The position numbers and the translations under genes are program-made. This document shows positions 1,610 through 24,980 of a stretch of 54,143 nucleotides of DNA, piece by piece (positions within the stretch are counted from its first letter, which is position 1; each line of letters opens with the position of its first letter). The notes below the pieces were generated by a model. The model worked only from the letters and a program-made list of their open reading frames with translations. It had not been told where the DNA came from and ran no database searches. Source of the DNA: Thermoplasmata archaeon (lineage in GTDB: Archaea > Thermoplasmatota > Thermoplasmata > Lutacidiplasmatales > UBA184); contig JAKIWO010000004.1 in NCBI GenBank assembly GCA_022749995.1, positions 1 through 54,143 of the forward strand, read 5' to 3'.

Positions 1610-1817
1610 CGTGCGAGGTTACCCAGCGAGTTGCTAGCGCCGCTGACGGTGCGAGACGTGCCGAATGAGCATCTCGCCAATGCTACGAACGAAAGGCTCC
1701 CTGGCTAGAACGAGAACTTGTCCTCGAGAACGATTCACCGACCTTTAGAGCACTGGAATCCTTCAATATTCGGGCTCGCTCAGGTCGGAGCGGACTTTGG
1801 CGGCTCCACGAGTAAAA

Positions 1818-2267
1818 ATGAAGCCAGAAGAGCTTTCGAATTTGATGCATACGCTGGACGATGCTTGGAATGCGGGGCCCAACAGTAAGCTCTGGGAGAC
1901 GTTCAGACAGCGGCACACCGAGGACGTCCAGGTCTACTGGCCCGGTCAACCCGAGCCTACCCGCGGACGTCACAACCACGACCTTGAGGCCGTGGAGTTC
2001 TTCAAGACATTTCCTGATAATCGCCTCGTCAACCGCCCCTACAAGATCTTCTTCGCAGCCGACCATCATACCTGCTCGGTCGCCGACTTCACCGGCACGA
2101 TGAAGGGACCGATGACGATGGGGCCGGGCAAAATCGCCCCCGCCACTGGGAAGAGTTTCCACGTGGAGTTCTGCACCATCGCCACATGGAATGACCGGGG
2201 AGAGATTACCGAGGAGAGACTCTTCTATGATCTCGTGGGCCTACTGAAGCAGATCGGGCTGGGCTGA
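1818..2267 (+). CDS. SnoaL-like ester cyclase family protein
   Basis: MKPEELS...HTEDVQVYWPGQPEPTRG...FTGTMKGPM...PATGKSFHVEFCTIATW...ITEERLFYD. Confidence 0.85.
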   Translation: MKPEELSNLMHTLDDAWNAGPNSKLWETFRQRHTEDVQVYWPGQPEPTRGRHNHDLEAVEFFKTFPDNRLVNRPYKIFFAADHHTCSVADFTGTMKGPMTMGPGKIAPATGKSFHVEFCTIATWNDRGEITEERLFYDLVGLLKQIGLG

Positions 2268-2412
2268 GGGTGGGCTCACCTACCCAAGGAATCGACTGCA
2301 CGGTCGAGGTTGCGATTCGCTCCTCCCGCGGCGAGAGCCGGTGCCGTACCTCCCCTGCGAGAACCGAGCCTCGGGGGGACTTTCAAATCGGGTGCGACAT
2401 CGTGGCCAGAGC

Positions 2413-2937
2413 ATGGTCGGACGGAGCACGGCCAAGATCCAGATTCGGGACTACCGCGAGACAGACCGCTCGTTCGTGGTCAGCCTATCCGACGAGACCC
2501 ACCACGAGTTGCGAGGGATGGATCCCGACCGATTCCCTCCTGCCGTCGTTCGAGATTCCTCCAACTGGTTCGAGAGGGGTCTCTACGAATCCTGGGCTCG
2601 ACGGTCCCTGTTCCTCCTTGCCCAAGTGGGGGACGAGCCGGCCGGCTTCATCCTCGCCGGACCCACGAACGATTCGTGGACTCCCACACCGGATGAACCG
2701 CGACCGCCGCAGAAGATCGGAGAGGTCTACGAGCTCCATGTGGCCAAGGCCCACCGTCGGAAGGGGGTCGGGTCCGCATTGCTCGACGCGTCAGAGCGGG
2801 AGTTGGCCCGCCAAGGCTTCGCGTACGTGACGCTGGTGCATCTCGCCCAGAACTCGGTCGCGGCCCAGCTGTACGCCGCGAGTGGATACCGCCCGAGGTG
2901 GGTGGTCCAAGAGAAGACGTTGAGTCCGACGCTTTGA
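2413..2937 (+). CDS. GNAT family N-acetyltransferase
   Basis: Acetyl-CoA motif VYELHVAKAHRRKGVGSALL and NSVAAQLYAASGY. Confidence 0.85.
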   Translation: MVGRSTAKIQIRDYRETDRSFVVSLSDETHHELRGMDPDRFPPAVVRDSSNWFERGLYESWARRSLFLLAQVGDEPAGFILAGPTNDSWTPTPDEPRPPQKIGEVYELHVAKAHRRKGVGSALLDASERELARQGFAYVTLVHLAQNSVAAQLYAASGYRPRWVVQEKTLSPTL

Positions 2938-2991
2938 CCGGCTGACGAGAATAGGTGCCTATTTCGCCACCGGAGCGTACTCCGGCTCTCC

Positions 2992-3282
2992 ATGACCGCG
3001 GTGGCCCCGGCGCAGAAGCTTCTGATGAAGAACCGCCGAGTCCGAGTCTGGGAGATGGTACTCCAGCCGGGGGAGACCTACCCTCGTCACCAACACCGGC
3101 ATCCCTACCTCTCGATCATGTTGGAGGACGCCACGGTACTCCTCACGGATGCCGAGGGTCGCGAGGAACGGCTCAAGGTCCGGAAGGGGGACGTAGTCTG
3201 GCGGGCTCCGCCCGAGGACCATTCCGTGCGGAACGTCGGCCGCACGAGGTTTCGGAATCGATTGGTCGAGCTCTACGGATAG
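2992..3282 (+). CDS. Cupin domain protein
   Basis: NRRVRVWEMVLQPGETYPRHQHRHPY...GDVVW...HSVRNVG...VEL cupin motifs. Confidence 0.85.
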   Translation: MTAVAPAQKLLMKNRRVRVWEMVLQPGETYPRHQHRHPYLSIMLEDATVLLTDAEGREERLKVRKGDVVWRAPPEDHSVRNVGRTRFRNRLVELYG

Positions 3283-3296
3283 CGCCGCGCGGTTGC

Positions 3297-4856
3297 CTAT
3301 TCGACGGTCGGTGGGGCCGGCGGCGCTCCGGCGATCTCTTGGCCGAGCGCAACGAAAGCGGCGGCGAGCGAGGGCCGCAGCAGCGGCAATCGGTGCCGTT
3401 CGGCCGCGCGGTAGGCTTCCCGCGCTCCCTCGACCGAGTGCATCTTGAAGCGGAGCCCGGCGAGGCGGAACTCCGCCTCGGCCCGCTGCGGCATGAGCCC
3501 GAGTTCACGGGCTCGCTCCGCGGCTTGCTGGAATCCGGCCTCGGCCTGATCCCACTGGCCCCGCCGTTCCTCGATCAGGCCCAGGGAGAGAGCGACGGCC
3601 GGTTCCCCTGCCGGGTCGGAGGCGCGCTCGAGCATGCGCGCGGCCAGGCGGGTTTCCCGTTCGGCTTCCTCGATCTCTCCGAGCTTGAGACGGAACTCGG
3701 TGCCGTACAGGTACGACCAGGCCTCCCATCGGGGCTCGCGGGCCCGCTCGGCGATGGCACGGACGCTCGCGAGGTGCTCGAGCGCCAGCCCCGGGTCGCT
3801 CGAGCCCACGAGATCGGCGAGCAGGAAGGTCGCCCGCACGAGGTCGGCGTCCGCGCCGGAGGGACCGAGCAGCCGGATCGCGCGATCGTACCAGCGCGCG
3901 GCCTCCTCCTGCATCTCCGGCCCGAGGCGAGCGAACGCCGATGCGAGCTCTAGGCCGGCCCGTCCGGCCGCTCCGGGCTCTCCGGTCTGTCGCAAGAACT
4001 CGAACGCCTTCATCGCCTCATCCAGCGCGGTGACCGCGTCCCCCTTCTCGGCAGCGACGCGGGAGCGCAACCGGTGGACCGCCGCCGCGCCTCCGATATC
4101 GCCCAAGTCCAGGAAGATACCGAGTGCCTCCTCTCCGAAGCTCTCCGCCTCCTTCGGACGGAGCTCCTCCCAGGCCATCTCGGCGCGTGCGAGCTGAAGT
4201 TGGGCGCGACCGGACCGGTCCTTCGGGGAAAGTCGCTCCACGGCCTCCAGGTAGGCACGCCCCGCAGCCGGAAAGTCACCGAGAGAATGGTACAACTGGC
4301 CCAGTTCACGGCTGATCTCGACTAGCTCAGTTCGGTGGTCCCCTCCCAGCTTGAGGAGGTCGCTGCGAGCCTGTTCGAAGTGGTGCGCGGCCTCGGGCCG
4401 CCGCCGCTCTTCCTTGGCGAGCTGCGCAGCCGCGAGGTTGTAGGTGAACGACTTCTGAGGGATCCGACCCAGGAAGAAGTGGCGCCCTAGCTCCGCCGAC
4501 GTTACCGGCGCGGCCGGGTTAGTTAGTCGTTCCATGGCGGCGGCGATCCGGCCGTGGATCACTCGCACCCGGCTCTCGGCGAGGGAGCGGTAGATCCGAC
4601 CACGGAGCGCCTCATCGGTGAAGGCAAACCGTTCCCCCCCGGGCCGTTCTCGCAGTACCCCGTCGCGCACGAGGCGCTCGAGCTGCTCGGAGAGCACCTC
4701 CGGCTCGCGCTCGAGGGCTGCCCCGAGGAGGGCGAACTCGAACTCACCGCCAATGGCACTGGCGTAGGCCAACGTCCGGAACTCCTCGGGCGCCCAGATC
4801 GCCCTTGGGTCGGAGTCCGGCCCAGCTGGGAGGGCCTCCTCCCCGCTCTCCGACAT
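3297..4856 (-). CDS. Tetratricopeptide-repeat protein with an N-terminal STAND-type winged-helix segment
   Basis: ASAIGGEFEFALL...LVRDGVL...FAFTDEALRGRIYRSL...IHGRIAAAME, followed by multiple TPR-like helices; no Walker A motif. Confidence 0.8.
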   Translation of the reverse strand: MSESGEEALPAGPDSDPRAIWAPEEFRTLAYASAIGGEFEFALLGAALEREPEVLSEQLERLVRDGVLRERPGGERFAFTDEALRGRIYRSLAESRVRVIHGRIAAAMERLTNPAAPVTSAELGRHFFLGRIPQKSFTYNLAAAQLAKEERRRPEAAHHFEQARSDLLKLGGDHRTELVEISRELGQLYHSLGDFPAAGRAYLEAVERLSPKDRSGRAQLQLARAEMAWEELRPKEAESFGEEALGIFLDLGDIGGAAAVHRLRSRVAAEKGDAVTALDEAMKAFEFLRQTGEPGAAGRAGLELASAFARLGPEMQEEAARWYDRAIRLLGPSGADADLVRATFLLADLVGSSDPGLALEHLASVRAIAERAREPRWEAWSYLYGTEFRLKLGEIEEAERETRLAARMLERASDPAGEPAVALSLGLIEERRGQWDQAEAGFQQAAERARELGLMPQRAEAEFRLAGLRFKMHSVEGAREAYRAAERHRLPLLRPSLAAAFVALGQEIAGAPPAPPTVE

Positions 4857-4993
4857 TCGTCTTGCGGGGGGAGATGCGTGGGGTCGATGGATAAACCCTC
4901 GTCCCAGAAAGTGGGTACCGGCGGGGGACCTCCGGGAGCGCCGGGCCGCACCAGGTTACCTCTTAATAGCCGACCCGGGGTGGGCGCGAGCCG

Positions 4994-5269
4994 ATGCCGC
5001 CCGGCGAGGACGAGTTTGCCATGGAGAACGCCCGCTCCGTATCGGAGTTGCCGTTCCCGCGACGCGTGGTGTTCTGGGGCTTCGGCGGGCTCGTGGTCCT
5101 TGCCGTCGGGTTCTACCTGTGGTGGGGTCTGTCGTTCGGCGTCTGGGTGGACAACGGGGTCTACGCCGTCGTGATTGTCCTGCTGCTGAGCGGTCTCGCC
5201 GGGATGTGGCTCGTCAGTCCCAACCCACCGGTTCCGCCCCTCCCACCCGAGAGCCGCCGACCGGGCTAG
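4994..5269 (+). CDS. Small two-TM membrane protein
   Basis: 91 aa, two hydrophobic helices, Pro-rich tail; TATA-like CTTAATA ~27 nt upstream. Confidence 0.7.
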   Translation: MPPGEDEFAMENARSVSELPFPRRVVFWGFGGLVVLAVGFYLWWGLSFGVWVDNGVYAVVIVLLLSGLAGMWLVSPNPPVPPLPPESRRPG

Positions 5270-5281
5270 GCGCCCGTACGG

Positions 5282-6706
5282 CTAGAGAGGCCTACCGGCA
5301 GCCGCCCAACTCGGGCCGCTGGGGGCACTACAGACCACGCAAGCCGGCGGCGCCCCAAGATCGATCGGTGGGGGTCCTTCGAGCGTCCCCAGCAACGCGC
5401 CATCGATGGCCTTCTCGATCGCGTGGCCACAGGTCTCCGACCCGCACCATCCGATCAGGCGGACCGTGCTCGACCCGGTGAGCTCCTCGACCCGCTCGGC
5501 GCGCGAGAACGCGGCGACGAACGCCGCCTGGGCCTTTTCCCGGAGGCCGGCGTCGTACTCCGCTAGGGCGCCCCGAACCGACTCCACCAGTCCGTCTCGG
5601 GGAAGGCTCACTCGTACTCCCAGCCGGTTGACGGCGCTCAACTGGCGGGCCGCGGCTTCCCGAGGGCCGACATCGAGCCGCAGCGGTACGCCCCGAGTCT
5701 CCCAGTAGTAGTACTTCGCGCCGGGGCGGTCGCTCCGCTCATCCATGTGGACCCGGAGGCCGGCTTTCTGGAGATCCGCCACGGCCTCTCGGGCGTAAGG
5801 GGTCGGGTCAGCCCCCTTGGCGGACGGGACCGGGACCACTACCACCTGGTACGGAGCGATGTCGGAGGGGAAAGCGACCCCCTTCTCGTCTCCGTGCACC
5901 GCGACGATCGCACCGAGGAGGCGCTCGGACAGGCCGAAGGTCGTCTGGTGGGCGTACTGGGCCGAGCCGTCCGGCGCCTCGTACTGGATGCCGTAGGGGC
6001 GGGAGAAATTCTCCCGATAATGGTGGATCGACCCGATCTGGAGCGTGCGGGCGCTGCCCAACGGGATGTCGAGCGCCACCGTGTAGAATGCGCCGGGGAA
6101 CTTGTCCCAGTCTGGGCGGCGGACCGCCAGGTACGGGAGCCCGAACCGCTCGGCCATCTTGGAGAAGGCGCCGAGATTGCTCTGCACCCGCTCGGTGGCG
6201 GTGGGTTCGTCGCGCTGGCAGGTGTGCTCTTCGAAGAAGTGGATCTCCCGCACCCGAATGAATGGACGCGTGGTCTTGGTCTCGTACCGGAAGGTGTTCA
6301 CGATCTGGTAGACGTTGAGCGGCAGGTCTTGATGGGACCGGATCCAGAGCTTGAAGATCGGGTACATCGCCGTCTCGCTCGTCGGCCGCAGCACGAGCGG
6401 GACGTCGAGCGGCGTGCTCCCGCCGCGGGTCACCCAGTAGACCTGCGCGTCGAACCCTTTGATGTGTTCCCGCTCCTTCTGGAACTCGGTCTCCGGGATC
6501 AGGGCGGGGAACTCGACCGGCCGAGAGCCGGTCGCCTCGATCTCCTCCTCCATCACGCGGTCGAGCCGCCGACGGGCGAGGAACCCGTACGGGGTCCAGA
6601 CGTTCATCCCCTTCACCGGGTAGCGCTTGTCGGTGAGGTCGGCCGCCTCGACCACCGCGAGGTACCAATCGATGAATGCCGAGGCCTTCTCCGGTAGCTC
6701 CGGCAT
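5282..6706 (-). CDS. proS: Proline--tRNA ligase (archaeal/eukaryotic type)
   Basis: YPVKG, LRPTSETAMY, FRYETKTTRPFIRVREIHFFEEHT, DKFPGA, TFGLSERL, anticodon domain and C-terminal Zn-binding Cys pairs. Confidence 0.97.
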   Translation of the reverse strand: MPELPEKASAFIDWYLAVVEAADLTDKRYPVKGMNVWTPYGFLARRRLDRVMEEEIEATGSRPVEFPALIPETEFQKEREHIKGFDAQVYWVTRGGSTPLDVPLVLRPTSETAMYPIFKLWIRSHQDLPLNVYQIVNTFRYETKTTRPFIRVREIHFFEEHTCQRDEPTATERVQSNLGAFSKMAERFGLPYLAVRRPDWDKFPGAFYTVALDIPLGSARTLQIGSIHHYRENFSRPYGIQYEAPDGSAQYAHQTTFGLSERLLGAIVAVHGDEKGVAFPSDIAPYQVVVVPVPSAKGADPTPYAREAVADLQKAGLRVHMDERSDRPGAKYYYWETRGVPLRLDVGPREAAARQLSAVNRLGVRVSLPRDGLVESVRGALAEYDAGLREKAQAAFVAAFSRAERVEELTGSSTVRLIGWCGSETCGHAIEKAIDGALLGTLEGPPPIDLGAPPACVVCSAPSGPSWAAAGRPL

Positions 6707-17743: not shown

Positions 17744-18314
17744 GGTGCTCGAGCAGCGCCAGAACCCGCTCCTCAAGCGGGTCGAACTGCAATTCGAAGT
17801 CGACCACACCGGCGCCGCCACGCCGCGCCGAGCCGATGTGATCGGCGAGCTGGCCAAGCAACTCAAGGTCCCCAAAGAGCGGGTCGTCCTCGAATCGATG
17901 CACGCGCGATTCGGCATCCCCCAGAGTCGCGGCGAGGCGCGGCTCTACGCGAGCACGGAGGCCCGCGACCGGGTCACTCGAGAGCACATCCTCATCCGCA
18001 ATGGCCTGAAAGAAAAGAAGACGGCCGCACCGCCCGGGGAAGCCGCCCCGACCCCGGCCCCAGCCGCTCCCGCCGCCCCAGCGCCGGCGGCACCGCCCGC
18101 GGCGGAGTCGAAGCCCGAGTCCAAGCCGGAGGCGAAGGCGGAGAAGAAGGCCGAGCACAAGCCGGAGCCCAAGGCGGATCACAGGGCCGAGCCCAAGGCG
18201 GATCACAAGGCCGAGCCCAAGGCGGATCCCAAAGCGGAGGCCAAGGTCGAGCCGAAAGCCGAGTCTAAGGGCGGTGGCAAGTCGGCGGCCAAGCCCTCCA
18301 AGAAGGAAGGTTGA
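17733..18314 (+). CDS. rps24e: 30S ribosomal protein S24e with a long low-complexity C-terminal extension
   Basis: NPLLKRVEL.FEVDH.GAATPRR...FG...SRGEARLY...HILIRNG, then ~95 aa of A/P and KAEPK repeats. Confidence 0.95.
   Translation: MEVRVLEQRQNPLLKRVELQFEVDHTGAATPRRADVIGELAKQLKVPKERVVLESMHARFGIPQSRGEARLYASTEARDRVTREHILIRNGLKEKKTAAPPGEAAPTPAPAAPAAPAPAAPPAAESKPESKPEAKAEKKAEHKPEPKADHRAEPKADHKAEPKADPKAEAKVEPKAESKGGGKSAAKPSKKEG
18165..18228 (+). repeat. 24-bp coding tandem repeat (about 2.7 copies) in rps24e, encoding EPKADH(R/K)A
   Basis: GAGCCCAAGGCGGATCACAGGGCC / GAGCCCAAGGCGGATCACAAGGCC / GAGCCCAAGGCGGATC. Confidence 0.9.
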
Positions 18315-18529
18315 GCGTGGGCAAGGCCCGTACCGACTTCTACTCGACGAAGGGCGAGACGCTCGCTCGGACCCATCAGCCCTGTCCCAAATGCGGGCCC
18401 GGGATATTTCTCGCCGAGCACTCGAACCGCCGCTCCTGCGGTCGCTGCGGCTACATGGAGAGCCGCTCGGAGCCGAAGCCCGTGGGCAAGCCCGTCGTGG
18501 GGAAGGCCAAGCCGACGAAGCCGGCCTAA
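18311..18529 (+). CDS. rps27ae: 30S ribosomal protein S27ae
   Basis: CPKCGPGIFLAEHSNRRSCGRCGYME zinc ribbon; TTGA overlap with rps24e. Confidence 0.95.
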   Translation: MSVGKARTDFYSTKGETLARTHQPCPKCGPGIFLAEHSNRRSCGRCGYMESRSEPKPVGKPVVGKAKPTKPA

Positions 18530-18666
18530 GTTCGCCCCCAGTTCGTCGGTTGCTCCAGCTCGGCGCCGTCGTGGTCCGCTTAGGCTCGCCCGTCCGCTGC
18601 GCGGCGGCACGCCTCGGGGACAACGCTTACGTAGCGCGTGCCTACCTCGACCCGTCCTCGATCCGC

Positions 18667-18740
18667 GGGCCCGTAGTATAGCTTGGATATCACAGAGGCC
18701 TCCGGAGCCTCAAACCCGGGTTCGAATCCCGGCGGGCCCG
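18667..18740 (+). tRNA. tRNA-Arg(CCG)
   Basis: Acceptor GGGCCCG/CGGGCCC-G, anticodon arm GAGGC-CTCCGGA-GCCTC, T arm CCGGG-TTCGAAT-CCCGG; CCA not encoded. Confidence 0.95.
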
Positions 18741-18822
18741 TCCCCGAAAGGGAGGGAGGTGGGTCGTCGGGCCGCCACCCAGATTTTCGAGTCTCTCCCC
18801 AGCACCGCACTCTCAGCGGAGG

Positions 18823-19221
18823 CTATCGCCAAACTACCGAAAGCGAAGGGACCCTGAGGAACGCCGGGTCATTCGATACCAATGGGAGCCCGCGTGAAAT
18901 CGCGAGGGAGGCAATCATCCTATCGTGAAGCTCCGGGATAGCTAGGTCCAGAAACGAACCCCAGCCCATCGGACCCAAGGCCGCGAGCTGGATGTATCCG
19001 GAACCCCGAACCTGGGTGAGGACCTCCTCTACAAGGGAACGTGGTTCCGGCGCCCCGATCCGCCCGCGTAGGGCGAGATACGCGAACTCGCCGAGGGCGA
19101 CCTCCGGTAAGAACAGCGTTGCTTCTCCGTTCTCGGCCTCTCGAAATATACGCTCGCTCCGGCGGGGAAGTGAGTCATCGAGATGCCGGATCAGTGCGAC
19201 CGTGTCGATGACGGCGTCCAT
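18823..19221 (-). CDS. PIN-domain (VapC-like) toxin
   Basis: MDAVIDTVALI...LPEVALGE...ELHDRMIASLA...LPLVSND; TGATG coupling to the upstream antitoxin. Confidence 0.9.
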   Translation of the reverse strand: MDAVIDTVALIRHLDDSLPRRSERIFREAENGEATLFLPEVALGEFAYLALRGRIGAPEPRSLVEEVLTQVRGSGYIQLAALGPMGWGSFLDLAIPELHDRMIASLAISRGLPLVSNDPAFLRVPSLSVVWR

Positions 19222-19448
19222 CAGAGGAGCCACTCTTTCTGGAGTGCGCGGAGCTCTCGCTCCGCCTTGCCTACGTTGACGCGGCCTTTCAGTAGACCCC
19301 GCAGAGTCTGGCGCCCGTGGCGGATCAGGACACCCTCCTTCGTCTCAAGAATGAGGACGGTCTCCCCCTCTTCGAGGTGGTGTCGACTTCGCAGCTCCTT
19401 TGGTAGCGTGATCTGGCCCTTCGAACTTACGACGGCAGACTTCGTCAT
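19221..19448 (-). CDS. AbrB/MazE/SpoVT-family antitoxin
   Basis: VVSSKGQITLPKELRSRHHLEEGETV...EGVLIR. Confidence 0.92.
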   Translation of the reverse strand: MTKSAVVSSKGQITLPKELRSRHHLEEGETVLILETKEGVLIRHGRQTLRGLLKGRVNVGKAERELRALQKEWLL

Positions 19449-19472
19449 AGTTCCCTGGAAGATGCACCCGAG

Positions 19473-19497
19473 TCAATAAACTTTACCTTAGGTAAAG
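19473..19497 (-). promoter_or_regulatory. TATA-like box plus adjacent perfect inverted repeat; candidate autoregulatory operator of the AbrB-PIN module
   Basis: Minus-strand TTTATTGA at 19473-19480, ~25 nt before the ATG; CTTTACCT-T-AGGTAAAG at 19481-19497. Confidence 0.6.
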
Positions 19498-19559
19498 GAA
19501 TGTCGACCTCCGCCTCCTCAGAACCCCTGGACTCCAAGGTCCTAGAACCTACAACCAAC

Positions 19560-19579
19560 CGAATCCCGGCGGGCCCGTC
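19560..19579 (+). repeat. att-like exact copy of the tRNA-Arg 3' end
   Basis: CGAATCCCGGCGGGCCCGTC, 20/20 identical to 18723-18742. Confidence 0.9.
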
Positions 19580-19708
19580 GCTCACCTCGGCCGGGTCCGG
19601 ACCCGGACGCCATCGATGGCCTCTGACTACCCCTTGCCTGACGTCGCTTACGTGGCGCAGCCTTACGCATAGGTAGGACTAATAGCCGCCAATCTCCTCC
19701 GCGAAGCT

Positions 19709-20146
19709 ATGGCGGACGAGTTGCTGCCGGAGTTCCATTGCCATCGCTGCATCTACACCTGGACTCCGAGACGCACGCCAGTCCGCATGTGTCCCCGATG
19801 CAAGTCGAGGCTCTGGAACGTGCCGGAGCTCCGTCCCGTGCGGCTGGGAACCGGCCTCGGGATCCCCGAGGTGTTCGGACCTCATCGCCTCAAAGTCCTG
19901 GCGCTGGTCTCGAACTACGGCGCGAAGCGAGTGCGGGTGTTCGGATCGGCTCGGCGCCGCGAGGCGAACAATAGGAGCGACGTCGACCTCCTCGTGGACG
20001 GTTTGCCCAAGGCCTCGCTTCTCGACCGCGCCCACCTTGAGACCGAACTGAGTCGAATCTTGGGGCGCTCGGTCGACGTCGTGGAAGAGGATGGCCTGCC
20101 TTGGTCGATCCGTCCTCAAGTGCTGGCCGAGGCGGTTCCCTTCTGA
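19709..20146 (+). CDS. Minimal nucleotidyltransferase (MNT/MntA-type antitoxin) with an N-terminal Zn-ribbon
   Basis: CHRC...CPRC, then VFGSARRREANNRSDVDLLV (GSx10DxD) and LGRSVDVV. Confidence 0.9.
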   Translation: MADELLPEFHCHRCIYTWTPRRTPVRMCPRCKSRLWNVPELRPVRLGTGLGIPEVFGPHRLKVLALVSNYGAKRVRVFGSARRREANNRSDVDLLVDGLPKASLLDRAHLETELSRILGRSVDVVEEDGLPWSIRPQVLAEAVPF

Positions 20147-20502
20147 GCGCCTCCGAAGCACGTGCCCGGACGTCGGTCGACAGAATGCTGCGCGAGGCGG
20201 CAGCCGCCCAGCGGTACCTCGCTCGTGGGAAGGAGGCATTCTTCGACGTGCGATCCCCGGAGATCCGGGAAGCGACGGAGCTGCGAATCCTTCACTTCAC
20301 GGAGACCGCGACGAAGGTGGGACGGCCGTTCCGGAACGCCAATCCCCTCATCCCCTGGGACGACCTCGACCAGCTTCGAAACGATCTCGTCCACGAGTAC
20401 CCCGAGGTCAAGGCCGATCCGATTTGGCGGTTCGTGCACGATGACCTGCCCGGCCTGGTCGCGAAGCTCCGGCGGGCCCGATATCCGACCGGCCGGGAGT
20501 AG
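20143..20502 (+). CDS. HEPN (DUF86/HepT-like) ribonuclease toxin; start placed at a CTG overlapping the MNT stop
   Basis: IPWDDLDQLRNDLVHEY (Rx4H motif), IWRFVHDDLP; alternative starts TTG 20101 and ATG 20185. Confidence 0.85.
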   Translation: MSASEARARTSVDRMLREAAAAQRYLARGKEAFFDVRSPEIREATELRILHFTETATKVGRPFRNANPLIPWDDLDQLRNDLVHEYPEVKADPIWRFVHDDLPGLVAKLRRARYPTGRE

Positions 20503-20578
20503 TCGCGAATCCCTAGCCGGAAGAAGAGGGTGCGGCCTCTCACGTGGGCTCCTGGGACGGATTCGAACAACTAGTTCA

Positions 20579-20597
20579 TCGAATCCCGGCAGGCCCG
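20579..20597 (+). repeat. Second att-like copy of the tRNA-Arg 3' end (one mismatch)
   Basis: TCGAATCCCGGCAGGCCCG versus TCGAATCCCGGCGGGCCCG (18722-18740), 18/19 identical. Confidence 0.85.
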
Positions 20598-20617
20598 AAT
20601 CACGTAGGAGCGCTGGG

Positions 20618-21025
20618 TCAGCCGAGCCAATCGGTCTCGGCGAGCTGGCGGAAGTGCGGATCGCCGGTGAGCAGCCGAGAGCCGGTCGCTCGAGCCGTCG
20701 CGAGCACCAGCCCGTCGCTCAGTCCCGGTCTCCCGAGCCTCAAGGACCTAGCCCGGCTCCGAAGCTCGGCCGTCGCAGCCGCCGCGGCTAGTGCCAGTTC
20801 GGGTCTGATGGGCACCACTGCGGAGGACTCCGTGATTGCAGCCATTTCCTGTTGGATCTGTCCGTCCCCCAGCCCGTCCCGGAAACACTGCAGCGCGACT
20901 TCCGCCAACACGATCGCCGGCGTGAAGCAGGAGTCCGCCGCCTCCAGGCGATCTTTCGCGTCGATCCCGAGCGCGGTTCCGCGGATCAGCTCGATCCAGG
21001 CGAACGAGTCAATCGTGAGCCGCAA
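20618..21025 (-). CDS. PIN-domain (VapC-like) toxin
   Basis: LTIDSFAWIE...TPAIVLAEV...GLSDGLVLATAR...LLTGDPHF; TTG start inside the 3' end of the antitoxin gene. Confidence 0.88.
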   Translation of the reverse strand: MRLTIDSFAWIELIRGTALGIDAKDRLEAADSCFTPAIVLAEVALQCFRDGLGDGQIQQEMAAITESSAVVPIRPELALAAAAATAELRSRARSLRLGRPGLSDGLVLATARATGSRLLTGDPHFRQLAETDWLG

Positions 21026-21221
21026 GCCGGTCCTCGTCCGCGAATCTTGACACCACTCCCTTGCCGCTGCCCAACATACGGTGCAGCGCGCGTGATCGCC
21101 GCTCACGCACCAGCTGCAGGATGGTCTCGTCCGCGCTCCGGGTGTGGAACACCTGCCGTAGCCGCTCCAGCTCGGCGAGCGTCTGCCTCGAGACCCGCAC
21201 CGAGGATACCGCGGCCGCCAT
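21009..21221 (-). CDS. Putative VapB-type (RHH-like) antitoxin
   Basis: MAAAVSSVRVSRQTLAELERLR...SADETILQLV...FADEDRL; overlaps the PIN gene. Confidence 0.8.
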   Translation of the reverse strand: MAAAVSSVRVSRQTLAELERLRQVFHTRSADETILQLVRERRSRALHRMLGSGKGVVSRFADEDRLAAHD

Positions 21222-21375
21222 GCGCGAGATTGCATGCACGCATGCGCGATAGGGCCTCCGTGTGTGGTGAACTCTGGTGAGTGCCCCCAACGGAGCGTCG
21301 GATGGCCGTGCTCCGCGAACTGGTCCCTGGTGGCAGAGGATACCCTGGCGCGAGCCGAGCTCGGCGCGGGTGCCG

Positions 21376-21747
21376 CTAGTCCTGCGAGCGGGCGCGGTGA
21401 TCGTGCAGCCGGAGTGCGTTTCCGGCGGGGTCCCAGATCACTCCCTGGTGACCGCTCTCCCGAAGGCACTTGACGCCGGCCCGAGTCAGCGCGGCCTCGG
21501 CTACCGGATAATCGGACACATGGAAGACGAGGGGTGTACCGGCCCCCTCGGGTCCGAGGGCGATCACGGGCGAATCCTCGTCGAGGTACAGCGTCAGCGG
21601 AAAGCCTCCGGCCTCTAGTTCGGTCCACACGGGGTTGACCTTCCCCCTCACGGCGAACCCAAGGAGCCCCTGGTAGAAGGCTAGCGACGATTCCATGTCC
21701 TTCACCGGCAGGATGATGTGTCCCACGCCCTCGACGACGCCCCCCAC
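21376..21747 (-). CDS. VOC/glyoxalase family protein
   Basis: VGHIILPVKDMESSLAFYQGLLGF...LVFHVSD...WDPAGNALRLH. Confidence 0.85.
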   Translation of the reverse strand: MGGVVEGVGHIILPVKDMESSLAFYQGLLGFAVRGKVNPVWTELEAGGFPLTLYLDEDSPVIALGPEGAGTPLVFHVSDYPVAEAALTRAGVKCLRESGHQGVIWDPAGNALRLHDHRARSQD

Positions 21748-21830
21748 GGTGGACGCACCGCGAGCGGACGTATGAACTAACGCGGCGGGTGAGCTTGCGC
21801 GCCTCCGCGCTCGATGGACCGAGGGTGCCC

Positions 21831-22361
21831 TTACCCCGCGGCCTTGGAGCGGCTGCGCCAGACGACGATCACGGCCACGACGGCCGTAAGGAGGTAGCAC
21901 GCGAGGAGGAAGTCGTACAGCCACGGGATGTACGAGAGGGCTCCCGGATACGCCGAGGTCCCGAAGAGGTACTTCTCGAACTCCGTCATGGACGGGAATC
22001 CCACCTGCGAGTACGACTCGACGATGCCGACCATAGCGAGCACGGCCAGGAGCGACCACGCTAGGGCGACGAGCCCCACATGCCGGCGCAGGAGTCCGGG
22101 CGTCCCATCAGCCGAGGAGGGGAAGGAGAACACCAACACGACCGTGGCCCCTACCACGTCCACGAGCGCCATCGCCAGGACGCCGTACCAGTGGGAGTAG
22201 TACGCCTTCTGGGCACCGAAATTGGTCTGCAGGTTCTTGTCCGTGACGAGCATGACGACGGCCACTACGAAGTCGAGCAGCAGCAACGCGGCCAGCGCGA
22301 GTCGGATCTTGTCCGGTCCGGGGCGGTTCCGCGGGGCACCCTGAGGCTCGGAAGCGGGCAC
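21831..22361 (-). CDS. Hypothetical four-TM membrane protein
   Basis: Four hydrophobic segments, TDKNLQTNFGA loop; start uncertain (frame is open to 22475). Confidence 0.7.
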   Translation of the reverse strand: MPASEPQGAPRNRPGPDKIRLALAALLLLDFVVAVVMLVTDKNLQTNFGAQKAYYSHWYGVLAMALVDVVGATVVLVFSFPSSADGTPGLLRRHVGLVALAWSLLAVLAMVGIVESYSQVGFPSMTEFEKYLFGTSAYPGALSYIPWLYDFLLACYLLTAVVAVIVVWRSRSKAAG

Positions 22362-22556
22362 GAGTTCGCAATTGAATCCCCCCTGATAGGCCCTTCTGTT
22401 GGAACCCTCCAGCGGGTTCCGGTCGACGTGCGGCTTTGCACCAAACGCTCGGACCGTGGGTCGGTCACCGCTCACGTTTCCGGCCCCCGTTGCCCGGGCG
22501 CGGACCGCTGGGGTGCCGCGGTTAGACTGAAGGTCCCGAGGAGGCTACGCCCCGCC

Positions 22557-23075
22557 ATGCAACTCCGTCCGCTCTACCGTGCGCAGTTCGAGTATCCCCA
22601 GCAGTGGGAGGCCGAGCTCAAGGGAAAGAACGGCGTGGAGGAACAGACCTTCCTGCTGGCCGAAGGAACGGTCGAGGGGAAGCTCACCGGGGCGCTGCGA
22701 GGCGCCAACTACGCCCGTCGCCGGACCGACGGGACGGCGGTGACCGACTTTCGCGGGGTCCTCGAGTGCGCGGACGGTGCGGTGGTCCTGTTCGAGTACC
22801 GCGGGTTCGGACGAGCCCACACCCCGGAGCACGACCGGATCGCGGGTGCCAGCCGGCGTCAATGGGTCGCCACGGCCACCCACCTCTCGCACGATCCTCG
22901 GTACGCCTGGCTCAACGACACCGTCTGCGTGGGCACGGGCGAGGTCGGTCCGCGTCCCGGCGGCGTGGTCGAGAGCGGCGGCGGTCTTAGCGGAGGACCG
23001 GCCGCTCGCCTTCGACTGGAGGTGGCCGAGCTCGTCTGGGAGCCGCCGGAGCCTGCGGCGCCATCCACGAAGTAG
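22557..23075 (+). CDS. DUF3237-like beta-barrel protein
   Basis: EGTVEGKLTGALRGANYARRRTDG...DFRGVLECADGAVVLFEYRG...DPRYAWLNDTVCVGTG; GAGGAGG upstream of the ATG. Confidence 0.75.
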   Translation: MQLRPLYRAQFEYPQQWEAELKGKNGVEEQTFLLAEGTVEGKLTGALRGANYARRRTDGTAVTDFRGVLECADGAVVLFEYRGFGRAHTPEHDRIAGASRRQWVATATHLSHDPRYAWLNDTVCVGTGEVGPRPGGVVESGGGLSGGPAARLRLEVAELVWEPPEPAAPSTK

Positions 23076-23138
23076 TGGCTGCCGGGTCGCTGCCCTAGTG
23101 GATCAGCGGTCTCCGCCCGACGCCGGACGGTACTCGGG

Positions 23139-23873
23139 CTAGTACTCCCCGTAGAACGGGGCGTCGACCGACATCGACGCGACGTCGTAGACCTCGATCT
23201 GATTGCCGTCGGGGTCCAGCAGGTAGGCTAGTCGGATCCCGTTCGGCCCGGTATGGAACGGGAACTCCCGGAACGGCCTCAGGTCGGCCGGCTCGCAGCC
23301 GATCGCGTGCGCTTTTTCGAGGACGCGTGGGACGTCGGGCACCCGCACCCCGATGTGGTCCAGCGCCTCTCCGGCGACGAACGGAACGCCGAACTGCCCT
23401 CCCGGCGGATACCAGTTCAACTCGAGTTGCTGACCGGTGCGCGGGTGGCGGAGCATGACGTTCCGGGAGTGGAGCTCCGCGTTCACGCGAGCGGGAGTGA
23501 CCGGCTCGAAGCCGAGGATGGTCGTGTAGAATAGGGTGGATCGCTCAAAGTCGGTCACGCGCAGTCCGAAGTACGTGACCAGTGGGATCCCCGGACCCAT
23601 CTGCGATGCTGCGGCAAAGGTGCGATGCGAGGGACGCCCGTCGATCAGTTGCTCGGGCACGGACGGGGGTCCGTCGGGGAATCGGTCCAGGAAGCGAGCG
23701 GGGTCGGTCCAGAAGGAGAGGCAGCTGAACCCGTCCTGGGTCCCTTCGCGTAGGACATACGCCCCGTAGCAGCCCGGGGATCCGAACAGGAGCGCCGCCC
23801 GTTGCTCGAGCGCTTTCAGCAACTCCCTCTCGGCACCCGATCGTGGACGGAGCGAGAGCATCTCGACGTACAT
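23139..23873 (-). CDS. Fusion of an ABM-like (antibiotic biosynthesis monooxygenase) domain and a VOC/glyoxalase domain
   Basis: N-terminal LRPRSGAERE...SPGC...FSCLSFW; C-terminal YFGLRVTDFERSTLFYTTILGF...LDHIGVRV...LDPDGNQIEV. Confidence 0.75.
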   Translation of the reverse strand: MYVEMLSLRPRSGAERELLKALEQRAALLFGSPGCYGAYVLREGTQDGFSCLSFWTDPARFLDRFPDGPPSVPEQLIDGRPSHRTFAAASQMGPGIPLVTYFGLRVTDFERSTLFYTTILGFEPVTPARVNAELHSRNVMLRHPRTGQQLELNWYPPGGQFGVPFVAGEALDHIGVRVPDVPRVLEKAHAIGCEPADLRPFREFPFHTGPNGIRLAYLLDPDGNQIEVYDVASMSVDAPFYGEY

Positions 23874-24101
23874 GGCGGGCACGCCGCTGCGATTCGTGCA
23901 CGTCGCTTATACCTAGTCGCGGGGCCCGAAGGCAGCCACCCGGCCGGCGGCCCAACGGTCGTACGCCGAGCCGTCCCGGCTCTGAGGATTCGGTACAGTG
24001 GTCGAATGGATCCGCCGGCCCGTACACCGGGTCGGCGAGGACTCCGCGGTCTGGGTGGCACAGTCCCGGTACTGTTACTAGCCGCTCGTAGCTGTCGGCT
24101 C

Positions 24102-24980
24102 ATGGCCGCGGAGCGGGACGTACGGGTCGGCGATGGCCGACGATTGAGGCTGACCGAGGGCGGAGCAGCGTCGGGGCCGGCCGTGTTCGTCCTGCACGGC
24201 TCCCCCGGAATGGGTGACCTGTACGAGCCGCACGTCCGCGACGCCCGGGCGCGAAGGGTGCGCCTCATCGGCCACGACCGGTCCGGCTACGGGGATTCCA
24301 CCCCGCACCCCGGCCGCAGCATTGCGGACGAGTCCGCAGACGTGGCGGCGATCGCCGACGAACTGGGAATCGACCGATTCGGGGTCTGGGGATTTTCCGG
24401 CGGGGGCGCTCTCGCGCTGGCCTGCGCCGCCCAACTGCCGAAACGCGTAGTCGGGGCCGCGTGCATCTCCGGCCTTGCTCCGAGGGGGGCGGACGGGCTC
24501 GACTGGCTCGCCGGCATGGGGGAGTCGAACGTCGAGGAGTTCCGTCAGCTCCTCGAGGACCGACCGGCCTGGGAGCGCAAGACGACCGAGGAGTGCGCCG
24601 CCCTGGCGAGCGCCGATCTGGCGCAACTGACCTCGAGCATGTCCACGCTCCTGTCCGAGGTGGACCGGGCAGCGTTCCAGGGTGACCTCGGGCGCTACTT
24701 CCACGGCATCATGACCGGGGGAGTTCGGCACGGTAGCGACGGCTATCGGGACGACTCGCTGGCCCAGATGCAGCCGTGGGGATTCGACGTGCAATCCATC
24801 CGGGTCCCGACCCAAATCTGGCACGGCGCACAGGACCGATTCGTTCCCTACACGCACGGTCAGTGGCTAGCCGCCCGGATCGCCGGAGCGGAGGCGCATC
24901 TCCTTCCCGTGGAGGGGCACATCACGCTCTACGAGCACGCGGTTCCGCAGGTCCACGCTTGGCTCGCCGCCCGGTTCTGA
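24102..24980 (+). CDS. Alpha/beta fold hydrolase
   Basis: LHGSPG, DRSGYGDS, nucleophile GFSGG, WHGAQDRFVP, EGH. Confidence 0.92.
   Translation: MAAERDVRVGDGRRLRLTEGGAASGPAVFVLHGSPGMGDLYEPHVRDARARRVRLIGHDRSGYGDSTPHPGRSIADESADVAAIADELGIDRFGVWGFSGGGALALACAAQLPKRVVGAACISGLAPRGADGLDWLAGMGESNVEEFRQLLEDRPAWERKTTEECAALASADLAQLTSSMSTLLSEVDRAAFQGDLGRYFHGIMTGGVRHGSDGYRDDSLAQMQPWGFDVQSIRVPTQIWHGAQDRFVPYTHGQWLAARIAGAEAHLLPVEGHITLYEHAVPQVHAWLAARF

Follow-up and report, generated by a model that had tools for sequence, protein, structure and literature searches.

A 54,143-nucleotide stretch of a Thermoplasmata archaeon genome (GenBank assembly GCA_022749995.1, contig JAKIWO010000004.1), referred to here as the window, was analyzed for an array of toxin-antitoxin cassettes that lies directly 3' of a tRNA-Arg(CCG) gene and is delimited by copies of the 3' end of that gene. 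The source assembly (G000) is a metagenome-assembled genome (MAG) of 1.61 Mb in 95 contigs, with 69% G+C and a completeness of 87%, and the window is its contig C34. The relatives used for comparison are Thermoplasmata MAGs; G-numbers designate genomes, C-numbers their contigs, and L-numbers retrieved contig stretches. ARAGORN placed the tRNA-Arg(CCG) gene at 18666-18743 on the plus strand, directly 3' of the genes for the ribosomal proteins S24e and S27ae. By our own reading of the sequence, the mature tRNA spans 18667-18740 and its CCA is not encoded. The gene is 95-100% identical in relatives and forms the anchor of the array (attB/attL).

A 20-mer core, CGAATCCCGGCGGGCCCGTC, which reaches from the T-loop to the discriminator base of the tRNA and includes two nucleotides of flank, was found at 18723-18742 and again, without any change, at 19560-19579, as the first-pass annotation of this DNA had reported. 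That annotation also gave a third copy with one mismatch, starting at 20579. The single mismatch (G>A at 20591) was verified over 18 nt, while the start was one base off, the actual copy being 20580-20597; past nucleotide 18, AA stands in place of TC, and three mismatches are counted over 20 nt (20580-20599). All three copies lie on the plus strand, and the spacings of 837 and 1020 bp had been given correctly. Core copies were expected by chance at 0.06, and at least three copies occurred in none of 100 shuffles. Nor was the sequence frequent genome-wide; a high frequency without relation to cassettes would have spoken against the proposal. An 18-mer search with up to two mismatches in the 1.61-Mb assembly returned the three array sites and two places unrelated to the array, one at the tRNA-Lys gene of C4 and the other on C12. 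Among the 31 tRNA genes found by ARAGORN in G000, partial copies of the 3' end within 20 kb were present for tRNA-Arg(CCG) only. The repeat array at this gene was hence confirmed as real and non-trivial.

Each of the two intervals between cores holds one toxin-antitoxin pair, and the Pfam matches agree with the pairs that had been proposed (AbrB/MazE with PIN, then a zinc-ribbon nucleotidyltransferase with HepT). Cassette 1 comprises the 817 nt at 18743-19559 (G+C 0.59-0.64), beginning with the left end GTCCCCGAAAGG, and encodes on the minus strand a PIN-domain (VapC-like) toxin of 136 amino acids (18823-19233; PF01850, E 1.3e-9) and an antitoxin of the AbrB/MazE fold of 75 amino acids (19221-19448; PF04014, E 5.4e-10; TIGR01439), the gene of which overlaps the start of the PIN gene. 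Cassette 2 comprises the 1000 nt at 19580-20579 and encodes on the plus strand an MntA-like nucleotidyltransferase antitoxin of 145 amino acids (19709-20146; PF01909, E 2e-10) with an N-terminal zinc-ribbon extension (CxxC...CxxC), followed by a HepT (HEPN) RNase toxin with an uncertain start codon (20101-20502; PF01934, E 3.4e-11). The NCBIfam equivalogs for the MntA/HepT pair score under the cut-off (NF047752 in the case of MntA). Upstream of the MntA gene, two CTTACG(T/C) motifs at 19645-19672 on the plus strand, which recur in the copies of this cassette in G017 and L098 described below, form a putative promoter or operator. Another motif, CGCTTACGT(A/G)GCGC, occurs twice, at 18619-18637 some 35 nt before the tRNA gene and at 19640-19658 upstream of the MntA gene, and may be a local TATA-like promoter element or operator.

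Cassette 3 was placed at 20598-21300, and its right boundary is not defined. It encodes on the minus strand a PIN-domain (VapC-like) toxin of 134 amino acids (20618-21022; PF01850, E 2.9e-14), the gene of which ends 20 bp past the last repeat, and a small open reading frame (ORF) of 70 amino acids from its ATG (21009-21221, with the frame open to 21290), which overlaps the start of the PIN gene by 14 nt. The small ORF is conserved in G013 and G007, matches no family in Pfam or NCBIfam, and is considered an antitoxin by position only. Of the third module described in the first-pass annotation, the PIN gene and its distance of about 20 bp from the last repeat were therefore recovered, while the VapB-like label of its partner was without family support. 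Just upstream of the small ORF, a palindrome (GCATGC-nn-GCATGC, 21232-21245), also conserved in G013 and G007, is a putative operator. No convincing fourth core was found after cassette 3, and a very weak likeness seen by eye at about 21326-21345 was rejected.

By their layout, cassettes 1 and 3, both on the minus strand, appear to fit Type II VapBC-like systems, with a PIN toxin and a small upstream overlapping gene. Cassette 2, on the plus strand, fits the Type VII MntA/HepT layout of a nucleotidyltransferase followed by an overlapping HEPN gene (PF01909 and PF01934), to which the zinc ribbon is an addition. In the two intervals, the non-coding stretches measure 77-129 nt and are thus too short for a gene remnant. 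Pfam and tblastn analysis of 18500-21600, the latter with three integrases of relatives, returned no real integrase remnant, in agreement with the earlier statement that no integrase is visible and against the possibility, also raised there, that remnants might lie within the intervals. A tblastn match of the integrase frame of G021 at 18677-18913 (E 1.8e-11) was discarded, as it represents translated tRNA and no DNA likeness extends beyond the tRNA.

Comparative evidence suggests that at least one of the cassettes, cassette 2, moves as a unit. Positions 2187-3225 of the metagenome contig L098 align with 19560-20597 of the window at 88.3% identity over 1039 nt, where the limits of the alignment are the first base of one core and the last base of the next, with no likeness after it. 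In L098, the homologue stands directly after tRNA-Arg(CCG), and the S24e/S27ae flank shares no more than 68% identity with the window. Similarly, contig C101 of G017, a member of a different genus of the same family, contains a homologue with 83% identity from base 19560 on. This copy ends at a decayed core (13/18) beside an alpha/beta-hydrolase gene and is preceded by another cassette, composed of a LexA-like winged helix-turn-helix (wHTH) gene, an antitoxin, and a ParE-like toxin. For the conserved genes on the 5' side of the tRNA, G000 shares 70-74% identity with G017 and 70-79% with its congener G002, in the latter case with one short stretch at 65%. An additional copy was found in a contig of the sequencing run X2, with 103 differences over 770 nt (about 87% identity), and its likeness to the window breaks off exactly before 19560 and after 20597. 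Across these alignments, cassette 2 stands in four contexts, with the repeats always as its limits.

Two sequencing runs were found to contain any of the stretch (shares of 0.09 and 0.08). Both are stored as contigs, and the boundaries of only one X2 contig were used. Short pieces that are 100% identical to the window (18852-19202 in X1; 20708-20859 and 20903-21099 in X2) may derive from the source sample and were not counted. As a separate observation in run X2, tRNA-Arg(CCG) is followed, from window positions 18741-18744, by at least three different continuations inside one metagenome, one of which resembles the TTTCCTTATAG flank of G004, G011, and G023.

Rather than being identical in all relatives, the gene content at tRNA-Arg(CCG) differs in nearly every genome examined, and common cassettes stand in different orders, consistent with the cassette array that had been proposed. 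For example, the order in G017:C101 is the wHTH, antitoxin, and ParE-like cassette followed by MntA/HepT. In G002, which belongs to the same genus as G000, the tRNA is followed by a 5-kb interval, a 790-bp cassette of an antitoxin with a RelE/ParE-like toxin, a 1010-bp DsbA-like cassette, and a hydrolase gene. The 5-kb interval beside the tRNA (G002:C94; L030 2435-6280) encodes a protein of 1281 amino acids with protein kinase, AAA_16, and TPR domains, the predicted architecture of which is STAND-like, as in defence systems. In G046, the tRNA is followed by an unknown ORF with a ribbon-helix-helix (RHH)/PIN pair, a zinc-ribbon MntA/HepT cassette, and a P-type ATPase cassette, and then by an AbrB/PIN homologue of cassette 1 and a further RHH/PIN pair. 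Two array pieces were found in G043, one with a TnpB (OrfB_IS605) in a core-bounded interval (L062 2875-4167, G043:C8), and insertion sequences thus also settle in the arrays. Additionally, G047 contains an NAD-epimerase cassette, and G001 contains one RHH/PIN cassette. In all, arrays of this kind were found in no fewer than ten further genomes, and toxin-antitoxin pairs make up most of their cargo. The cassettes measure 0.8-1.0 kb in the window and up to about 3 kb in relatives, with cores of 18-26 nt.

Among 180 genomes of the family, an exact 19-mer of the core was present in at least two copies in 21, compared with none of 180 for a reversed control, and at least 11 genomes contained two copies on one contig, 0.8-8.2 kb apart. 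This exact count misses arrays with variant cores, such as those in G002, G017, and G047; like the tally of the integrase family among 180 genomes given below, it includes G171-G173, which have zero or one core copy each and on which no claim rests. A toxin-antitoxin pair was present in 12 of 18 core-bounded intervals from loci reached through the tRNA or the core (three each in G000, G002, G046, and G043, two in G017:C101, and one each in G013, G001, G015, and G047). Loci found with cassette genes as queries were excluded from this count. Among the loci included, G017:C101 was first reached by its likeness to cassette 2, and the repeat in G015 has three mismatches.

Several other features of the tRNA-Arg(CCG) locus in relatives were recorded. 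In G001 (C36 and C37), G004, G005, G006, G016, G017:C139, G021 (twice), and G023, a contig end falls at the gene or no more than 1.6 kb from it, which fits assembly breaks at a strain-variable locus. The S27ae gene adjoins tRNA-Arg(CCG) in the window, as it does in more distant classes, but 1 to 29 kb of DNA lie between the two in G007:C43, G012:C1, G022:C4, G014:C2, G009:C52, G001:C37, G004:C74, and L098, and the 5' side of the tRNA may therefore also take up DNA. Zinc-ribbon MntA/HepT pairs were also observed 0.2-1 kb 3' of tRNA-Cys(GCA) and tRNA-Thr(GGT) genes at eight loci on other Thermoplasmata contigs (L068, L069, L071, L099-L102, and L086); copies of the ends of these tRNAs, with up to four mismatches in 20 nt, were found downstream of MntA/HepT in none of the four loci checked. 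The contig L108 was ruled out as a circular cassette, since its ends do not overlap and another cassette makes up its upstream part.

Cassette 3 provided an indication of the order of arrival. It aligns at 68-70% identity with the DNA directly after the tRNA in G013 and G007, and in G013 a decayed core lies 795 bp from the tRNA core. Because it adjoins the tRNA directly in these two genomes, cassette 3 would be the oldest of the three. The G+C content is 0.59-0.65 in cassettes 1 and 2 and 0.66-0.69 in cassette 3, compared with 0.69 for the genome, and the distal boundary of cassette 3 has undergone decay. These observations fit an insertion at the intact tRNA by which older units would have been pushed outward, and the suggestion of the first-pass annotation that the newest cassette lies next to the tRNA agrees with the position of cassette 3 in G013 and G007, the lower G+C of cassettes 1 and 2, and the decay of the distal repeat.

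Homologues of cassette 1 were found in 14 of 179 other genomes of the family and in none of the seven of its own genus, and AbrB/PIN pairs homologous to cassette 1 and followed by a core were identified in G120, G104, G095, G122, and G043. Of eight homologues that were fetched, four (G120, G104, G095, and G122) have an Arg-type core 659-777 nt past the start of the match, and a fifth stands behind tRNA-Lys(CTT) and a Lys-type core. The G120 homologue belongs to a cassette of 1771 bp that reaches from the tRNA to an exact core. A likeness over 12 nt was seen between the left end of cassette 1, GTCCCCGAAAGG, and the sequence that separates tRNA and integrase in integrase-bearing elements (those of G018 and G005 and elements at tRNA-Lys), and the motif was not found after other tRNAs of G000. 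This likeness hints that cassette 1 may descend from an integrase-bearing element.

On contig C65 of G017, tRNA-Lys(CTT) is followed by an 834-bp RHH/PIN cassette of a family seen at tRNA-Arg in G046, G043, and G001, then by an exact Arg-type core, and then by 38 nt like the left end of cassette 2. Because the tRNA-Lys gene is intact and the distal core is of the Arg type, strand exchange probably took place within the shared terminal GGGCCCG(T), a crossover region of 7-8 nt. Cassettes with MntA/HepT were also found beside tRNA-Lys at other loci, with Lys-type cores downstream. Immediately 5' of the core, cassettes unrelated to each other have one of three end types in common: a TCGAAnAAnTAGT-like end, a GCATCC some 25 nt upstream, or a GGTT that extends the core into the T-stem. 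These types were sorted by eye from 43 contexts, of which eight are tRNA-Lys genes and about five are chance matches.

In G000, PF00589 matched a single protein, XerA, encoded on contig C14 (NF040815, 241.9 bits with the cut-off at 220). In relatives, a candidate recombinase was found at the tRNA itself. In G005, a gene for a tyrosine recombinase of 423 amino acids starts 15 nt after tRNA-Arg(CCG), and integrases at the same place in G018 and G021 are 82% and 36% identical to it, respectively. This integrase family was found in 20 of the 24 family genomes of a first sample and, at E<=1e-60, in 62 of 180, and it adjoins tRNA-Met, -Ile, -Val, -Lys, and -Arg genes. In G018, copies at tRNA-Arg and tRNA-Lys(CTT) are 81-82% identical. 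The family was not linked to any array examined. Two other integrase-bearing loci were observed. On contig C6 of G020 (1641-6445), two variant tRNA-end copies, CGAATCCCGGCGAGCCCG, lie 4.8 kb apart and enclose an integrase frame with two TGA stops and one TAA stop, apparently a classic decaying integrated element. A 9.2-kb integrase-bearing element at tRNA-Met in G182 showed by eye no toxin-antitoxin pair at its far end, and it thus provided no support for large elements that carry such a pair next to attR.

The array is best explained, with a probability of roughly 0.68, as a set of integrase-less, att-flanked cassettes that accreted at tRNA-Arg(CCG) and were moved by a tRNA-targeting tyrosine integrase acting in trans. 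The integrase would recombine the tRNA 3' end (attB) with the identical core on an incoming circular DNA, and the integration would regenerate the tRNA and leave a partial copy on the far side. Its source would be an integrative plasmid or virus, of the family seen immediately 3' of the tRNA in relatives, that provides it in trans. Repeated insertion at the intact tRNA would push older cassettes outward, with cassette 3 as the oldest and cassettes 1 and 2 as later arrivals. A cassette between two direct cores might be excised as a circle, or be carried off together with a neighboring autonomous element from the outer core. Each cassette would carry its own promoter and usually one toxin-antitoxin pair; the pair would penalize loss, and toxin-antitoxin pairs would therefore dominate the remaining cargo.

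A broader proposal, which we put forward only tentatively, is that the locus acts as a platform for cassette capture. The tRNA-Arg(CCG) end, interchangeably with the tRNA-Lys(CTT) end, would be an attI-like dock for self-promoted minicassettes of about 1 kb that circulate between species and are inserted, excised, and reshuffled by one integrase family in trans, each cassette having a core and, just 5' of it, a conserved end motif of the TCGAAnAAnTAGT or the GCATCC type. If so, it would amount to an analogue of the integron in function, with an independent origin in Archaea, and to a vehicle for the long-noted mobility of toxin-antitoxin pairs.

Several observations weigh against accretion driven by an integrase in trans. 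The integrase family was not found in G000, G002, and G006 at E<=1e-5, nor in G043, G046, G047, and G017 at E<=1e-60, with fragments on another contig in G017. In five of five further array-bearing genomes checked, the integrases lie on other contigs, and G000 (87% complete) and G043 (82% complete) show a recombinase of the XerA type only. The exact 19-mer core had no matches among the viral contigs of IMG/VR, so that no donor element with an attP is in hand. The homologues of cassette 1 are only 66-70% identical to it, and the likeness stops short of the cores. Recombination is inferred from comparison of sequences, and no event, circle, or empty site was observed; the runs contain under a tenth of the sampled words and consist of contigs. 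Furthermore, all genomes compared are MAGs, and several loci were found through cassette genes, which inflates the share of toxin-antitoxin pairs.

The alternative raised in the first-pass annotation was that three larger elements, taken here as integrated plasmids or viruses, were each reduced in place to the addiction module; the small units would then never have moved, and the similarities among genomes would reflect descent and loss. An origin by reduction is plausible for cassette 1, given the likeness of GTCCCCGAAAGG to integrase-bearing elements and its restriction to tRNA-Arg in G000, and the stop-ridden integrase between the two tRNA-end copies of G020:C6 illustrates such decay, as do the remnants of integrated elements at Sulfolobus tRNA genes, some with vapBC, in the available part of one account (PMC3718332). 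However, cassette 2 reaches identities of 88% and 83% in hosts with only 68-74% identity of conserved genes, its homology starts and stops at the cores with different neighbors each time, where independent erosion would not repeat the same boundaries, and an RHH/PIN cassette with an Arg-type core stands at tRNA-Lys. We consider decay in place unlikely. Homologous recombination after DNA uptake, with the tRNA, the cores, or neighboring cassettes as arms, would dispense with a dedicated integrase after the first insertions. It would accommodate the finding of no linked integrase in any array-bearing genome examined, and the tRNA with the upstream ribosomal-protein genes offers long conserved homology on one side. 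Nevertheless, the cores measure only 18-26 nt, the boundaries match the core to the base, and the Arg-type core at tRNA-Lys would require an exchange in a shared stretch of 8-10 nt, which is typical of site-specific recombination; this explanation appears improbable.

The host XerA could also be the mover, as Xer is for integrative mobile elements exploiting Xer (IMEX) and the pdif modules of Acinetobacter, and it is the only tyrosine recombinase found in G000 (C14) and G043. The repeats have the form of direct tRNA-end copies and not that of dif-like sites, whose arms are inverted, and a dedicated family of tRNA-targeting integrases occupies the same site in relatives, which leaves XerA a very unlikely candidate. 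Chance repeats, or a chimeric assembly that joined strains at the repeat, can be dismissed almost entirely. While the source is a MAG of 95 contigs and tRNA-Arg lies at or near a contig end in several relatives, three core copies occurred in 0 of 100 shuffles, the same architecture was found in many independent assemblies, and a 20-nt repeat is unlikely to mislead an assembler. Accretion at the tRNA by an integrase in trans remains the preferred explanation.

Two features of the surrounding sequence lie outside the array. The 3' part of the S24e gene (18091-18294) contains about 13 imperfect 12-nt repeats that encode a tail rich in lysine, proline, glutamate, and alanine. Downstream, the region 21376-24980 contains a glyoxalase-fold gene identified by Pfam, a hydrophobic-looking ORF of 214 amino acids with no Pfam family, and other ORFs. 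It is not syntenic with the tRNA locus of relatives, and DNA like the 214-amino-acid ORF was found near integrase genes in G013:C64 and G018:C62.

Few prokaryotic genes are as horizontally mobile as toxin-antitoxin pairs, and to our knowledge the vehicle that moves them in archaea is mostly unknown. The array suggests how such pairs travel between archaea. The unit of movement can be read from the sequence as a cassette of about 1 kb with copies of the tRNA end as its ends, present in several genomes and positions at a higher identity than the conserved genes of its hosts. It also presents a testable system, in which the site and the cassettes are defined, an integrase family is a candidate, and a crossover spanning 7-8 nt is predicted, and integron-like gene banks may be built on a tRNA gene with no resident integrase. 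Loci of this kind supply compact toxin-antitoxin modules of archaea and may also yield tools for site-specific integration in Thermoplasmata.

Among known systems, chromosomal integrons are ordered arrays of small single-operon cassettes at one anchor, with entry beside the anchor, and toxin-antitoxin cassettes with their own promoters stabilize the array. The array of the window is likewise ordered, with small single-operon cassettes at one anchor and, by the order proposed above, the newest beside it. In contrast to integrons, there is no IntI gene beside the array, as ribosomal-protein genes lie upstream and the only PF00589 match of G000 is the XerA on C14. Judged without a folding analysis, each cassette ends in a direct tRNA-end copy of 18-26 nt instead of an attC hairpin, the anchor is a functional tRNA gene, and cassettes occur in both orientations, hence with no common promoter (Pc). 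The integron-like character that had been suggested thus holds as a functional analogy, while the defining parts of an integron are not present. The pdif modules of Acinetobacter plasmids and IMEX are recombinase-less and use inversely oriented Xer sites that lie on plasmids or at dif. They share with the window cassettes a small size, frequent toxin-antitoxin cargo, short recombination sites, and varying combinations, but the sites in the window are direct tRNA-end copies on the chromosome.

Arrays or remnants of integrated elements at archaeal tRNA genes have reportedly been treated under the term gene capture in archaeal chromosomes. The re-use of one tRNA site by archaeal elements with tyrosine recombinases has been described (PMC6563490), and so have decayed remnants at archaeal tRNA genes, some with vapBC (PMC3718332). 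As far as the available parts of these accounts extend, site re-use, direct tRNA-end repeats, and vapBC retained in remnants are common to them and the window, while their elements measure several kb or are irregular remains, in contrast to reshuffled, repeat-bounded cassettes of about 1 kb. The "suicidal" integrases of the SSV type integrate into tRNA genes and leave an element with no intact integrase, according to the accessible part of another source (PMC7253208). There, int is split into two flanking pieces, while no int fragments flank the window cassettes and the integrase of relatives is intact beside the tRNA. A literature search, in which supplements and subscription journals were not covered, found no account of cassettes of about 1 kb that are bounded by repeats and common to several genomes.

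The nearest described system appears to be the site-specific accretion of streptococcal cis-mobilizable elements (CIMEs), at least as presented in the available part of its description (PMC5704250): CIMEs stand in tandem at tRNA genes, have no integration or transfer genes, keep attL and attR, and are proposed to be mobilized by the integrase of another element. The window cassettes similarly lack integration and transfer genes, are flanked, as in relatives, by direct tRNA-end repeats (attL and attR), and stand in tandem at a tRNA 3' end. They differ from CIMEs in their archaeal host, in their far smaller size of about 1 kb with a single operon, and in that no conjugative partner is known. Moreover, the same unit occurs in several genomes with identical boundaries, as would be expected of a circulating cassette rather than a one-off wreck, and the array would extend the idea of accretion from bacterial conjugative elements to archaea, at a much smaller scale.

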